Below are positions 11,471-15,185 of a stretch of DNA of 64,000 bases, piece by piece. Below the pieces are notes generated by a model. The model ran no database searches, was not told the DNA's origin, and saw nothing but the letters and a program-made list of their open reading frames with translations. Position 1 is the first letter of the stretch, and each line of letters starts with the position of its first letter. A program made the position numbers and the translations under genes. The DNA is from Longimicrobiales bacterium (GTDB taxonomy: Bacteria; Gemmatimonadota; Gemmatimonadetes; Longimicrobiales; Gaopeijiaceae): contig CBDFIQ010000002.1 of assembly GCA_965248195.1 (NCBI GenBank), positions 2,880,001 through 2,944,000 on the forward strand, written 5' to 3'.

Positions 11471-11502
11471 AAAAAAAGCCGCGACCCTCGAGGGGCCGCG
11501 GC
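11471..11502 (-). terminator. Intrinsic terminator of the proximal attenuator
   Basis: Minus strand GCCGCGGCCC-CTCGA-GGGTCGCGGC followed by T7. Confidence 0.88.
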
Positions 11503-11526
11503 GTCCGCCTGAGTCTTCGCTTCTCG

Positions 11527-11610
11527 TCAACGACTCGTCGGAACGCGCCCCTCTCTAGGCGTGACCAGGCAACAACAACAGCAACAACACATGGCCGTCA
11601 GTGGAGTCAT
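11527..11610 (-). CDS. Poly-cysteine leader peptide MTPLTAMCCCCCCCLVTPREGRVPTSR (proximal attenuator)
   Basis: ATG 11610 with GAGG upstream; seven consecutive Cys codons TGT TGT TGC TGT TGT TGT TGC (11589-11569); TGA 11529-11527; GAGGGGCGCGTTCCG is complementary to the terminator 5' arm. Confidence 0.85.
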   Translation of the reverse strand: MTPLTAMCCCCCCCLVTPREGRVPTSR

Positions 11611-11702
11611 TTCCCAAGCCTCGAGATTTTCAGGGAACCGCACGTTTCGTATACCTCGTCCTAAGTTTGGGAATTACATACCTGAGTGCCCAAACCGCCG
11701 TG

Positions 11703-11834
11703 TCACTTCTTGTCCGGCGGTGACCTGAGGATAGCCTTCGCGACGTTCTCCGGGGTGTCCGGTATCTTCCGTTGCTGCGTATTGATGTCGTAGTCGTGCT
11801 TCGGCGGCCTGCCGGGCTTCTTCTTGTCTGTCAT
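11703..11834 (-). CDS. Small basic 43-aa protein at the IS end (MTDKKKPGRPPKHDYDINTQQRKIPDTPENVAKAILRSPPDKK)
   Basis: Manual translation; starts 12 nt after the endonuclease stop with AGAAGGG upstream; ends just inside the TIR; AT-hook-like KPGRPPK. Confidence 0.55.
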   Translation of the reverse strand: MTDKKKPGRPPKHDYDINTQQRKIPDTPENVAKAILRSPPDKK

Positions 11835-11846
11835 GTCGTGGCCCTT

Positions 11847-12806
11847 CTATACGGCGTGAATGGTGGCGAATGGTGGTTTGTCCTTCAGCTTCCTCGTCAT
11901 AGACGCCAACGACGGAAGATGCGGCGTGCCCAGAATCTCCAGCCAACACCGCCGGTCTCCGTTCCTTGCACGAATCGGGCCTGCATAAAGCGCGAGTGGT
12001 CCGTTCAAATCCGCTACGATCATGTTGACTTCATCAGGCGTCCAGCCTGGCGAAGTCAGATCGTCTAGTGGCAACACGGTTTGTGTACGAATGTATTCCG
12101 CGAGCAAGTCCTGCACGATCCATATAGTGCGACCGCCCCAGCTATTCGCGGCCTCCGACTTGGCGACAAGTTGCGATGCCATACGCGCCCACACTTGCCG
12201 CGTATTGACGCCGGGAGAGCGAACGGCCTCATTGGCTGGCGTATGCGCGAATAGTACAGCCCTCTTGAACGCCGCCTGTATATCGGTGCCCATCTGCCTA
12301 TTCCCACCGGACGTAGAGCACGTCATGACTTCCACGATGATAGGTGCCGAATCGTCCTCCAAGCCTCGCAATACATAATCAAGACGGTAATTGAACGTCC
12401 CGCCACTTCCTTTCTCTCTTAACGAGATTTCCGACCACACAGACACTGGTTCGCCCGCTTGAAAACCCGCGAGGCGAAACACCCGCTTGGCTAGTTCGTG
12501 ATGTTTGGCCGAAATTCCCTGCGGTCCGAACGCGAATAGGCGGTGAGGGCAGATGGCCCAGACCTTGCCCCGTGCGAAGCGAACCGAGCAAATGCCGCAG
12601 GGCAGCCAGCCGCCCGTCTCCGTGCCCACGGAAGACGAAAATAGATGCCCAAGCGACTCATCCGATGACCGTACTCGCGCCATATCTCGATTTCCGCCAC
12701 CATCACAAACAGACTCGGTGAACGGACATCGGGCCTTCCGGCAAGCATCCCCGTCCATGCCGGACTCTTCGAGCGGCTGTCCATACAACTCTTCCACTAC
12801 AGGCAT
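11847..12806 (-). CDS. Type II restriction endonuclease, NotI-like family
   Basis: N-terminal ELYG...CPF...C...CSV...ICPHR metal-binding Cys pattern; PD-(D/E)xK-like LDYVL...IIVEVMT; overlaps the methyltransferase stop. Confidence 0.75.
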   Translation of the reverse strand: MPVVEELYGQPLEESGMDGDACRKARCPFTESVCDGGGNRDMARVRSSDESLGHLFSSSVGTETGGWLPCGICSVRFARGKVWAICPHRLFAFGPQGISAKHHELAKRVFRLAGFQAGEPVSVWSEISLREKGSGGTFNYRLDYVLRGLEDDSAPIIVEVMTCSTSGGNRQMGTDIQAAFKRAVLFAHTPANEAVRSPGVNTRQVWARMASQLVAKSEAANSWGGRTIWIVQDLLAEYIRTQTVLPLDDLTSPGWTPDEVNMIVADLNGPLALYAGPIRARNGDRRCWLEILGTPHLPSLASMTRKLKDKPPFATIHAV

Positions 12807-13831
12807 AGTGTCTCCGCGACGGCCTTCGCCATTGGTGGCGGGACCGCGTTGGCTACTTGGCGATGCTGGTCAAGGTCACGCACGGAACCCGACCTACCAC
12901 GAATGGGGCCAGTAAAGACGTACGTATCAGGAAAGCCCTGTAGGCGCGCCGCCTCTCGGGGCGTGACGTACCTATCATCGGTCGGATGGTAGGGCGCTTC
13001 CCCGCAGCGCAGCGTAGGCGCGAACGACGAACGGTCGAGGCGGCGAAACTTCGTCGTGTCCTTACGTGTGAGCTTCTTGATAATGTCCGGTGGCGCATCA
13101 GGACACTTCGATAACCATAGCCCTTCCGGCACGAAGGATATGCGCTCCCTGTCTCTCGCTGGCGTTATGTCAATGTGGTTCGGCAGTGCCGGGTTTCCAT
13201 CTCGCAGCACGGGGTCTGGCATCTTGCTCAAGGCGTCGCCTACGGTCCGCCGAACCCCGTTTCCCAACGGGAAGTCGAACTGCACATCTTCACCGGGAAG
13301 GAACACAAGAAAAACGCGCTCACGGTTCTGGGGCAGACCATAGTGCAATGCGTTCAGAGTACGAACATGCATCTTGTAGCCAAGCTCTTGAAACTCCGAC
13401 GCGAGCATATGGACGGCCCGCTGTCCATCCGGCATCATCGCTCGCAAGAAATACGGAACCTGCTCTATCATGACGGCCCTGGGGCGGAAGACATCCGTAA
13501 ATCGCACCATGTCGAAAATCAGCATCCCTCGCGGGTCACTAACTCCGTTGCGCTTCCCGATCTGGCTGAACGGCTGGCATGGGGGACCGCCATGGAGAAG
13601 CCCTAGATCGCCTTTACTCATTCCGAGAAGGTCACGCATTCTGTCAGCATCAACCAACCGGACATCGACGTTCCAAACCGTCTTCTTGCGAGCGTTACGC
13701 CTGAGTGTGGTGGCGCAATGCGGATCAAAATCGATGGAGCAAACCGTTTTGAACCCAGCCTGATCCACACCAATGTCCATGCCGCCCGCCCCCGCGAATA
13801 AGCTCACTGCGCTTCCGCGATTCCGCATCAC
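12797..13831 (-). CDS. DNA (cytosine-5)-methyltransferase
   Basis: Motifs I SLFAGAGG, IV GGPPCQPFS, VI IEQV, VIII QNRERVF, IX TPREAARLQGFPD, X QVANAVPP. Confidence 0.93.
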   Translation of the reverse strand: MMRNRGSAVSLFAGAGGMDIGVDQAGFKTVCSIDFDPHCATTLRRNARKKTVWNVDVRLVDADRMRDLLGMSKGDLGLLHGGPPCQPFSQIGKRNGVSDPRGMLIFDMVRFTDVFRPRAVMIEQVPYFLRAMMPDGQRAVHMLASEFQELGYKMHVRTLNALHYGLPQNRERVFLVFLPGEDVQFDFPLGNGVRRTVGDALSKMPDPVLRDGNPALPNHIDITPARDRERISFVPEGLWLSKCPDAPPDIIKKLTRKDTTKFRRLDRSSFAPTLRCGEAPYHPTDDRYVTPREAARLQGFPDTYVFTGPIRGRSGSVRDLDQHRQVANAVPPPMAKAVAETLCL

Positions 13832-14784
13832 GCGACCAGTTCCCGGTAGCGGAGCCGTCCGCCGACCAGCCCACGCGCCACCGCGCCCATCTGGTCCAGC
13901 GTGTCTAGCGGTCGGTCGTTGAAGCGTCCGGCGAACTCCGCGACATAACGGTCCAGATGCTTCGGGCTCATGTGGTGATAGGTGCCGTAGTAGCCGCGCT
14001 TGAGGAGCGCCCAGAACGATTCCACGCCGTTCGTGTGGGCTTGGCCGTTCACGTACTCCCTGACGCTGTGGCGTACCGTAGCGTGCTCGTAGTCGCGGGA
14101 GAGCCCACCGTAGCCGCCATGGTCGTCCGTGTAGACGGTGGACCCGGCCTCGGCGTGGTCGGCAACGAACCCCGTCAGCGTCTCACCGTCTACACGATCC
14201 ACCACGCGAGCGGCTACCTGCTTCGTCTCGCGATTCTTCGCGCCAGCCACGGCGGTCTTGCCAACCGGCCCACGGCCAGCCCGTAGCTTCTTGCTCCCGT
14301 GCTTGTTCCGCTCCTTGCCGCCTATGTACGTCTCATCGACCTCGACGGGACCGGAGAACGGGGCCGGGGCGGTGCGCCACGTCTGGCGGATCCGGTGCGC
14401 CAGATGCCAAGCGGTCTTCTGCGTCACACCCAGATCACGGTGCAGCTTCATGCTGCTGGCTCCCTTAATGCCGGTCGTGAGGATGTAGATCGCGACGGCC
14501 CACACCTGATAGCCGAGCTTCGTGTCTTCCATCGCCGTGCCGACCCGTACGCTAAACCGCTTGCGGCACGACCGGCAACGGTAGGGCATCGTCGGGTGCT
14601 TCGCGCCCATTTGCACGTTATCCGACGCGCAATGCGGGCAGACCGGAGAGCCGCCCCAGCGCTGTTCTGCGAACCACCCTTCGGCAGCTTCGTCGCTCGG
14701 GAATATCCGCATCAACTCCACCCATGACAGCCCTTCGCGCTCCGCCCGTCCGGGGCCGCCGTTGTACTTGCTGTTGCCGCTCAT
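13828..14784 (-). CDS. IS1595-family transposase
   Basis: Zn-ribbon CPHC...YRCRSC, HTH SSMKLHRDLGVTQKTAW, DDE core VEVDETYIGG...VYTDD...NGVESFW. Confidence 0.95.
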   Translation of the reverse strand: MSGNSKYNGGPGRAEREGLSWVELMRIFPSDEAAEGWFAEQRWGGSPVCPHCASDNVQMGAKHPTMPYRCRSCRKRFSVRVGTAMEDTKLGYQVWAVAIYILTTGIKGASSMKLHRDLGVTQKTAWHLAHRIRQTWRTAPAPFSGPVEVDETYIGGKERNKHGSKKLRAGRGPVGKTAVAGAKNRETKQVAARVVDRVDGETLTGFVADHAEAGSTVYTDDHGGYGGLSRDYEHATVRHSVREYVNGQAHTNGVESFWALLKRGYYGTYHHMSPKHLDRYVAEFAGRFNDRPLDTLDQMGAVARGLVGGRLRYRELVA

Positions 14785-14921
14785 CTCTATGCTCCGCAAT
14801 GTGTTATCCTATATTGGTAATATAGTACCCATCACGGAGGGTCGCAAGGGGTTTGGGTACTCAGGTATGTAATCCCCCTAAGTTTCGGGTCTTTCCATTC
14901 CCGGTCTCACCCGGTTCGAAC

Positions 14922-14975: not shown

Positions 14976-15003
14976 AAAAAAGCCACCGAATGTCTCCGGT
15001 GGC
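14976..15003 (-). terminator. Intrinsic terminator of the distal attenuator
   Basis: Minus strand GCCACCGGA-GACA-TTCGGTGGC then T6. Confidence 0.85.
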
Positions 15004-15031
15004 GTTTCAGGGAACCTCGTCGCGTGTATGC

Positions 15032-15127
15032 CTATACGACGTCTCCCCGATACCCCACCGGGCTCGGACAAGAACATCGGCAACAACAACTCTCGAGCAT
15101 CATGACCCGCATCCTTTTACAACACAT
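15032..15127 (-). CDS. Cys-rich leader peptide MCCKRMRVMMLESCCCRCSCPSPVGYRGDVV (distal attenuator; alternative starts 15112 or 15103)
   Basis: 7 Cys in 31 codons (5 Cys if it starts at 15103, which has AAGGA upstream); TAG 15034-15032; CCGGTGG...GGGGAGAC is complementary to GTTCCCTGAAACGCCACCGG, which overlaps the terminator. Confidence 0.78.
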   Translation of the reverse strand: MCCKRMRVMMLESCCCRCSCPSPVGYRGDVV

Positions 15128-15157: not shown

Positions 15158-15185
15158 ACGCTAACCGCCCGAAGTCCCCTGTCAA
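15158..15185 (-). promoter_or_regulatory. Sigma70-like promoter for the distal leader
   Basis: TTGACA (15185-15180), 16-bp spacer, TAGCGT (15163-15158). Confidence 0.6.

Follow-up and report, generated by a model that had tools for sequence, protein, structure and literature searches.

When a restriction-modification (RM) pair lies between the ends of an insertion sequence (IS), the question is whether transposon and RM genes arrived together, and which genes belong to the element and which are its passengers. This question is raised by a locus in the 64,000-nucleotide stretch analysed here, which we call the window (Longimicrobiales bacterium, GenBank assembly GCA_965248195.1, contig CBDFIQ010000002.1, positions 2,880,001 to 2,944,000, forward strand). 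Our answer, held with good confidence, is that an intact IS1595 transporter insertion sequence (tIS) inserted here as one 3,209-bp unit. Its core likely consists of two ends, a transposase and a micro-protein of 43 amino acids (aa), whereas the slot in the middle holds a methyltransferase (MTase) and a predicted NotI-like nuclease, likely a type II RM pair. The parts of the element, in window coordinates, are as follows:

11669-14877: IS1595 element including both terminal inverted repeats (TIRs), 3,209 bp
11661..11668, no strand: target-site duplication, copy 1, CTAAGTTT
11669..11696, no strand: right TIR, 28 bp, downstream of the genes, 26/28 positions matching the left TIR
11703..11834, minus strand: basic micro-protein, 43 aa, stop codon 7 nt from the right TIR, gene 12 nt after the nuclease
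11847..12806, minus strand: predicted type II restriction endonuclease of NotI-like fold, 319 aa
12797..13831, minus strand: C5 cytosine DNA MTase, 344 aa (PF00145 4.6e-57; TIGR00675; PADLOC MTase_II 1.9e-70)
13828..14784, minus strand: IS1595-family DDE transposase, 318 aa from the ATG at 14784 (323 aa from an alternative TTG at 14799), with an N-terminal Zn ribbon
14819..14847, minus strand: predicted Sigma70-like promoter, TTGCGA-17-TATATT, just inside the left TIR
14850..14877, no strand: left TIR, 28 bp, upstream of the transposase, 26/28 positions matching the right TIR
14878..14885, no strand: target-site duplication, copy 2, CTAAGTTT

Four intact minus-strand open reading frames (ORFs), overlapping or adjacent, fill the element in the order transposase, MTase, nuclease, 43-aa ORF, and the MTase and nuclease are thus passengers enclosed by the two ends of one IS. 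The TIRs are short and start with GG, and the duplication is 8 bp long, as described for the IS1595 family in PMC8101967 and PMC5704250. In a search of 41 genomes (the element's own and 40 relatives), several congeners match both insertion flanks and do not match the element. In two of them the flanks are joined and the 8-mer is present once, as CTAAGTTT in G011 and as CTGAGTTT in G006; the 8-bp repeat is therefore a true target duplication. Since these empty sites lack the RM genes as well as the TIRs, the RM genes are absent from the locus without the element.

An earlier reading of the window, made from the sequence alone, had proposed the 26/28 TIRs with their perfect duplication, the four intact ORFs with their overlapping starts and stops, and an IS1595 element that moved as a unit with its RM pair. 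The repeat comparison, the ORF coordinates and the single-copy empty sites agree with it on each point. It had also named RM genes standing at this locus without TIRs in relatives as an observation that would speak against it; the congeners lack both. Movement as a unit is further suggested by a metagenomic contig in which the right TIR runs into another flank, and by a sister element present in four copies in one genome (both described below). For its claim of recent activity the support is moderate: repeats and genes are intact, and the genome holds one copy. The genome-wide TIR search it had called for, run with up to 6 mismatches, found no second copy of the element in its own genome, and a match at 7 mismatches belongs to a different, broken IS1595.

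The transposase itself is an IS1595 enzyme with an intact DDE. The DDE domain is recognised by PF12762 (1.2e-43, 149 bits) and NF033547 (188 bits), the N-terminal ribbon Zn_Tnp_IS1595 by PF12760 (2.7e-8, 34 bits, cut-off 25.4), and the catalytic residues D150, D220 and E255 are in place and conserved. This enzyme, a member of a very large group (8,000/8,000 scored candidates were homologues), would have moved the whole unit into an AT-rich 8-mer.

The two middle genes differ from the core in codon usage: GC content at third codon positions is 0.82 in the transposase and 0.86 in the micro-protein gene, versus 0.66 and 0.62 in the MTase and nuclease genes. The MTase carries motifs I, IV (PC), VIII, IX and X; its motif VI is EQV, a family trait (EQV 51, EMV 22 and EVV 2 among 75 homologues). 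The 319-aa protein, with 358 homologues among 1,296 candidates, is predicted to be NotI-like by fold. Its AlphaFold2 model (predicted local distance difference test 88.5) matched only NotI in Foldseek at E<=0.001 (3c25/3bvq, four chains; best 6.4e-9, TM ~0.5, 14% identity), and the protein adjoins NotI-family clusters in the Atlas (0.96) and matches PADLOC REase_II (3.2e-7). Residues C27, C34, C73, C86, E126, D143, E159 and K216 persist in homologues as distant as about 33% identity, and the model is consistent with a NotI fold with an N-terminal Cys4 site. The sequence-only reading had called this nuclease NotI-like, and had allowed that the ORF might lack nuclease homology altogether; the fold match and the Atlas neighbourhood uphold the call. 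There is no Pfam match to the nuclease, and PF12183 (NotI) matches 0/35 alignment members and 0/5 distant homologues; we therefore file it as NotI-like and not as a PF12183 member.

It could be argued that this is no classical RM system, that the NotI-fold protein is dead, a nickase or modification-dependent, and that an orphan or regulatory MTase rides in the IS. Indeed, in a sequence-level comparison the nuclease has E159-V-M161, an E-x-M with D143 and E159 conserved, an invariant Met at position 161 and an invariant K216, whereas PD-(D/E)xK enzymes have K at that position and NotI has Q according to the review PMC4081073. The nuclease also lacks any Pfam or Protein Data Bank (PDB) sequence match, profiles included, and MTase motif VI is EQV, EMV or EVV, not ENV. 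However, E126, D143, E159 and K216 are retained to about 33% identity, the whole fold matches NotI, the MTase stands upstream of the nuclease in 76/79 loci from many phyla, and a Vsr gene follows the RM pair in locus L022. We regard this alternative as improbable. A type II RM pair, with separate, linked genes for MTase and endonuclease (76/79 loci; PADLOC MTase_II and REase_II), is what the sequences point to. Palindrome depletion gave no pointer to the site that the two enzymes would share. In such a pair the MTase would protect host sites and the nuclease would cut unmethylated DNA, giving defence against phages. Post-segregational killing is known for some type II RM systems (PMC2853133). 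Addiction is plausible here, and the pair may provide post-segregational stabilisation.

How did the IS come to hold this pair? We examined 79 nuclease loci of the 118 confirmed matches in genome contigs. They come mostly from marine metagenome-assembled genomes (MAGs) of many phyla, including some named sponge symbionts; in the host phylum the RM family is rare (5/301 genomes). The pair stands without IS1595 nearby in about 70 of the 79 loci, and in 7 the MTase directly follows an IS1595 transposase or its remnants, while 2 others show remnants of the ends. IS1595 is absent from the closest RM relatives (66-78% nuclease identity); two were inspected, and the pair lies between host genes in L025 and is followed by the Vsr gene in L022. 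L053 is an intact 3,278-bp IS1595 that is not a sister of the window element, with perfect 24-bp TIRs, the same RM family and layout and the same 4-nt overlap, and the same MAG holds a decayed second copy (L085) with an 8-bp duplication. That copy (L085:3607-11803) is interrupted by several other ISs and retains its TIRs and duplication. Separately, locus L081 has the MTase-nuclease pair in an archaeal (Cenarchaeum) MAG, at 39-46% identity.

A quick nuclease tree of 67 rows (13/80 were dropped as short or broken) places the window enzyme in a 99-supported clade of 8, whose 7 other members lack transposase and micro-protein, and puts the five remaining IS-linked rows together in another clade, 100-supported. 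The window and L053 transposases are not sisters. From this, we infer at least two independent captures of the RM pair by ISs, and the cassette may have been taken from a pool of free cassettes common to phyla of marine host-associated bacteria. The opposite history would be an ancient RM-IS link, with the free cassettes as relics that lost their transposon and neither repeated capture nor swapping required. The 7 loci with transposase or remnants, the 2 with end remnants and the frequency of decayed RM-IS forms fit such a history. It is, in our judgement, distinctly doubtful, as the other IS-linked rows placed on the tree all fall in their own clade, the window enzyme sits among free cassettes, and the two transposases are not sisters and have neighbours that carry other cargo.

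Repeated capture is not the only exchange that the data suggest. The RM pair recurs, about 98-99% identical, on contigs from four other studies (in X13, 26 differences in 2,097 nt), and these contigs leave the window sequence at 11768, which falls within the micro-protein gene, and in the 3' end of the transposase gene. The transposase pieces of X6 show 92-94% identity; there, one contig stops matching at the end of the left TIR, and the right TIR runs into a different flank. X7 and X13 have the right-end module 11669-11837 on contigs of 9.8 kb and 1.4 kb that match nowhere else. The same runs returned empty sites in related organisms. With the same RM pair on variant transposase ends, and the same right end with other cargo, cassette swapping into an exchangeable slot is likely. 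The mosaic is something that we infer, since these contigs are short metagenomic pieces and cannot all be linked to one molecule. Swapping among sister elements would proceed by recombination in two conserved arms, the transposase 3' end on one side and the micro-protein gene with the right TIR on the other.

The sister elements fit a varied slot. Among 120 related transposase loci (40 regions from relatives and 80/236 metagenome matches), 37 lie between TIRs that are flanked by perfect 8-bp duplications (one of these, L110, is apparently spurious), and the AT content of the 30 distinct duplications is 75%. The element set used below also numbers 37, spans 1.4-6.4 kb and comprises 33 non-redundant bounded sisters (a few without a perfect duplication), the window element, L050, L053 and L001. 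Cargo ORFs were chosen heuristically, 64 being scanned with Pfam and 37 with PADLOC, and 10/33 sisters have defence-like cargo:

L099, L120: MTase-Mrr fusions
L143, L171: MTases
L108: MTase and REase_II pair
L158: BstA
L161, L128, L154: PDC-S13, PDC-S33 and PDC-S42, respectively
L127: AAA ATPase with DUF3226

The other sisters have mostly no cargo family match, and two have no cargo. Four identical 2,533-bp copies with four different duplications (L108, L109, L239 and L240) lie in the complete 2.9-Mb genome G042; their cargo is an N6/N4 MTase, which starts with a micro-protein-like motif, and a REase_II. It follows that, in this lineage, elements loaded with RM genes take their cargo along when they transpose. 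Judged from these sequences, the RM pair of the window is one of many cargos of an IS1595 lineage.

A few single elements deserve mention in their own right. L127 and L128, related elements in different genomes, have the same duplication, CTAACAAG, which hints at a preferred target in their subgroup. L107 (G105:C11), a 4.4-kb element, has three micro-protein homologues on the strand opposite to the transposase, suggesting nested or stacked captures. A second IS1595 of the window's own genome (L001:1604-2985; G000:C2:2996103-2997484) has perfect 24-bp TIRs, a TTTTCTTG duplication and the same micro-protein; its transposase is frameshifted, truncated and fused to a 134-aa fragment without Pfam or PADLOC match, and it adjoins another IS, apparently beside tRNA genes. 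Elsewhere in that genome (L002 ~1732-1776; G000:C2 ~3349730), a near-consensus promoter and a 20-bp inverted repeat overlap; a region with a partial IS1595 transposase lies downstream.

The micro-protein encoded by the last gene is rich in K and R and contains GRPP followed by the helix motif I-x-[DA]-T-P-E-x-V-A-K-A-L. An iterated profile, circular by construction, finds homologues in 26/37 elements, mostly 180-260 nt from the right end; when one element at a time was left out, 26/28 members still scored above each of the 19,455 host decoy frames. In several elements without a profile match, a short basic ORF comes straight after the transposase stop. A search of 1.84 billion representatives with the profile gave 509 clusters at E<=0.001, those listed being mostly 40-70 aa long; GRP occurs in 89/159 aligned members and the median net charge is +5. 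The profile also had 11 genome matches that had not been used for training. An IS1595 transposase lies within 1.5 kb of 8 of them, and a further one has a TIR-like end; three of these are near-copies of training elements. The motif is also fused to the cargo N-terminus in L158, a profile match, and apparently in L108 and L161. No fitting Pfam or NCBIfam family was found, nor any description in the literature searched, a scope that excludes Siguier 2009 and ISfinder.

The 43-aa ORF could instead be a controller or antitoxin of the RM pair, or a non-functional by-product of conserved sub-terminal DNA. Its place 12 nt behind the nuclease, the divergence of the family (mean column identity 23%) and the 11/37 elements without a profile match are compatible with this. 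On the other hand, the ORF occurs in elements without other cargo (L112, L114) and with unrelated cargo, and it is conserved as a peptide, usually with an ATG and a Shine-Dalgarno-like sequence. It is also absent from RM loci without IS marks, the only matches among the RM loci being L050, L053, L084 and L085, and its position varies between terminal, directly after the transposase, and fused to cargo N-termini. We consider a controller, antitoxin or by-product unlikely; on these sequence patterns the micro-protein is likely a second core gene of the IS1595 lineage and not cargo. More tentatively, we propose a two-gene IS1595 lineage in which the micro-protein, with an AT-hook-like GRP and an amphipathic helix, may be an accessory factor of transposition, directing insertion to AT-rich targets or regulating the transposase, and in which the transposase 3' end and the micro-protein gene may form the recombination arms of a swap-in slot.

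The gene layout suggests how the cargo may be expressed. The GTG start of the MTase and the TGA stop of the transposase overlap by 4 nt, an in-frame ATG comes directly after, and the nuclease starts with an ATG 10 nt before the MTase gene ends. With no gap between it and the transposase gene, the MTase likely depends on the transposase transcript. From a promoter within the left TIR, a single transcript would then cover transposase, MTase, nuclease and micro-protein, translated by re-initiation at the overlapping stop and start codons, and a tie of RM expression to transposase transcription is plausible. In 24/37 elements an ORF starts -8 to +25 nt from the transposase stop, and at exactly -4 in 16/37, a count that stands without a null control. 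Promoter-like sites occur in the first 130 nt of 16/37 elements versus 0.04 per 130 nt elsewhere, a difference inflated by AT-rich ends, as 6/37 also score at the right end; in the window, the left-TIR promoter alone is not significant (1 found versus 1.3 expected in shuffles). These limits weigh against our overall reading, as do the single copy in the genome, the nuclease's lack of a Pfam match and its E-x-M site, and the short contigs behind the swapping argument.

The element separates two leader units of a sulfur-assimilation operon. Each unit consists of a conserved Cys-rich leader ORF with a terminator-like hairpin behind it; sulfite/nitrite reductase and siroheme genes follow downstream, and element and operon have the same orientation:

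11478..11610, minus strand: host Cys7 leader-peptide ORF (11610-11527) and terminator-like hairpin (11502-11478), upstream of the sulfite/nitrite reductase gene
14982..15103, minus strand: host Cys-rich leader-peptide ORF (15103-15032, with a CCCRCSC run) and terminator-like hairpin (15003-14982), conserved in 5 congeners

A conserved promoter-like site, TTGACA-17-TAGCGT, starts at 15185 on the minus strand, and the tandem leader units are conserved in 4-5 congeners. Leader-peptide attenuators are a known form of control, and on that analogy, and from their anatomy, we read the tandem leaders as putative cysteine attenuators; one literature search found no paper on them. As the IS landed between the two leader units, its promoter could bypass the first. 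In congeners such as G004, a PAPS/APS reductase gene (PF01507; L005:735-1427) lies between the second leader and the reductase, and the window lacks it there (~11420).

The element is a clean, intact example of how a type II RM pair can travel between genomes in a 3-kb vehicle, small enough for transposition, restriction and addiction to be assayed directly. The nuclease stands for a NotI-like subfamily that Pfam does not detect and whose specificity may be new. The cargo slot of the lineage is easily delimited by the TIRs, the duplication and the micro-protein as a marker, and because 10/33 sisters have defence-like genes, the unannotated cargo offers a ready pool of candidate anti-phage genes. 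If the two-gene proposal is true, these elements would act as minimal defence hotspots that move by themselves and, in dense marine host-associated microbiomes, exchange RM, BstA-like and other anti-phage cassettes between phyla. A micro-protein acting as transposition factor would also revise the view of IS1595 elements as single-gene units.

Transporter ISs of the IS1595 family are established (PMC5704250, PMC3129680, PMC9330008, PMC8101967), the concept being credited in PMC3129680 to Siguier, Gagnevin and Chandler 2009. Like MTnSag1/tISSag10 and tISCpe8, as these are described in PMC5704250, the window element has an IS1595 DDE transposase, TIRs of about 25 bp, an 8-bp duplication, an AT-rich target and passengers inside its ends. 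Unlike them, it carries an RM pair instead of lincosamide resistance, and its lineage, known here from sequence alone, is marked by a conserved micro-protein and by cargo that varies among sisters of 1.4-6.4 kb. With NotI (PDB 3C25, 3BVQ; PF12183) the nuclease shares the overall fold (Foldseek E 6e-9, TM ~0.5) and four conserved N-terminal cysteines that fit the Fe-binding Cys4 motif given for NotI in PMC4081073. It differs in its 14% identity, below Pfam detection, and in having E-x-M where NotI has E-x-Q at the presumed catalytic strand, and NotI's recognition site is not assumed for it. Transposon-like RM units were reported by Furuta, Abe and Kobayashi 2010 (PMC2853133) in Neisseria gonorrhoeae, with 26-bp inverted repeats (IRs), and in Xanthomonas oryzae, with 65-bp IRs. 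As presented there, the RM genes of these units are likewise enclosed by IRs, imperfect or perfect, with an 8-bp duplication, a relative has the empty site, and the Neisseria unit has a COG3677 transposase-like gene inside; the transposase of these units is likely missing or not active, and the type IIG gene is truncated. In the window element, by contrast, all genes are intact, and a sister element is present in four identical copies. An RM-carrying tIS is therefore a kind of element already known, to which this locus and its relatives add a micro-protein family and a varied, often defence-like slot.

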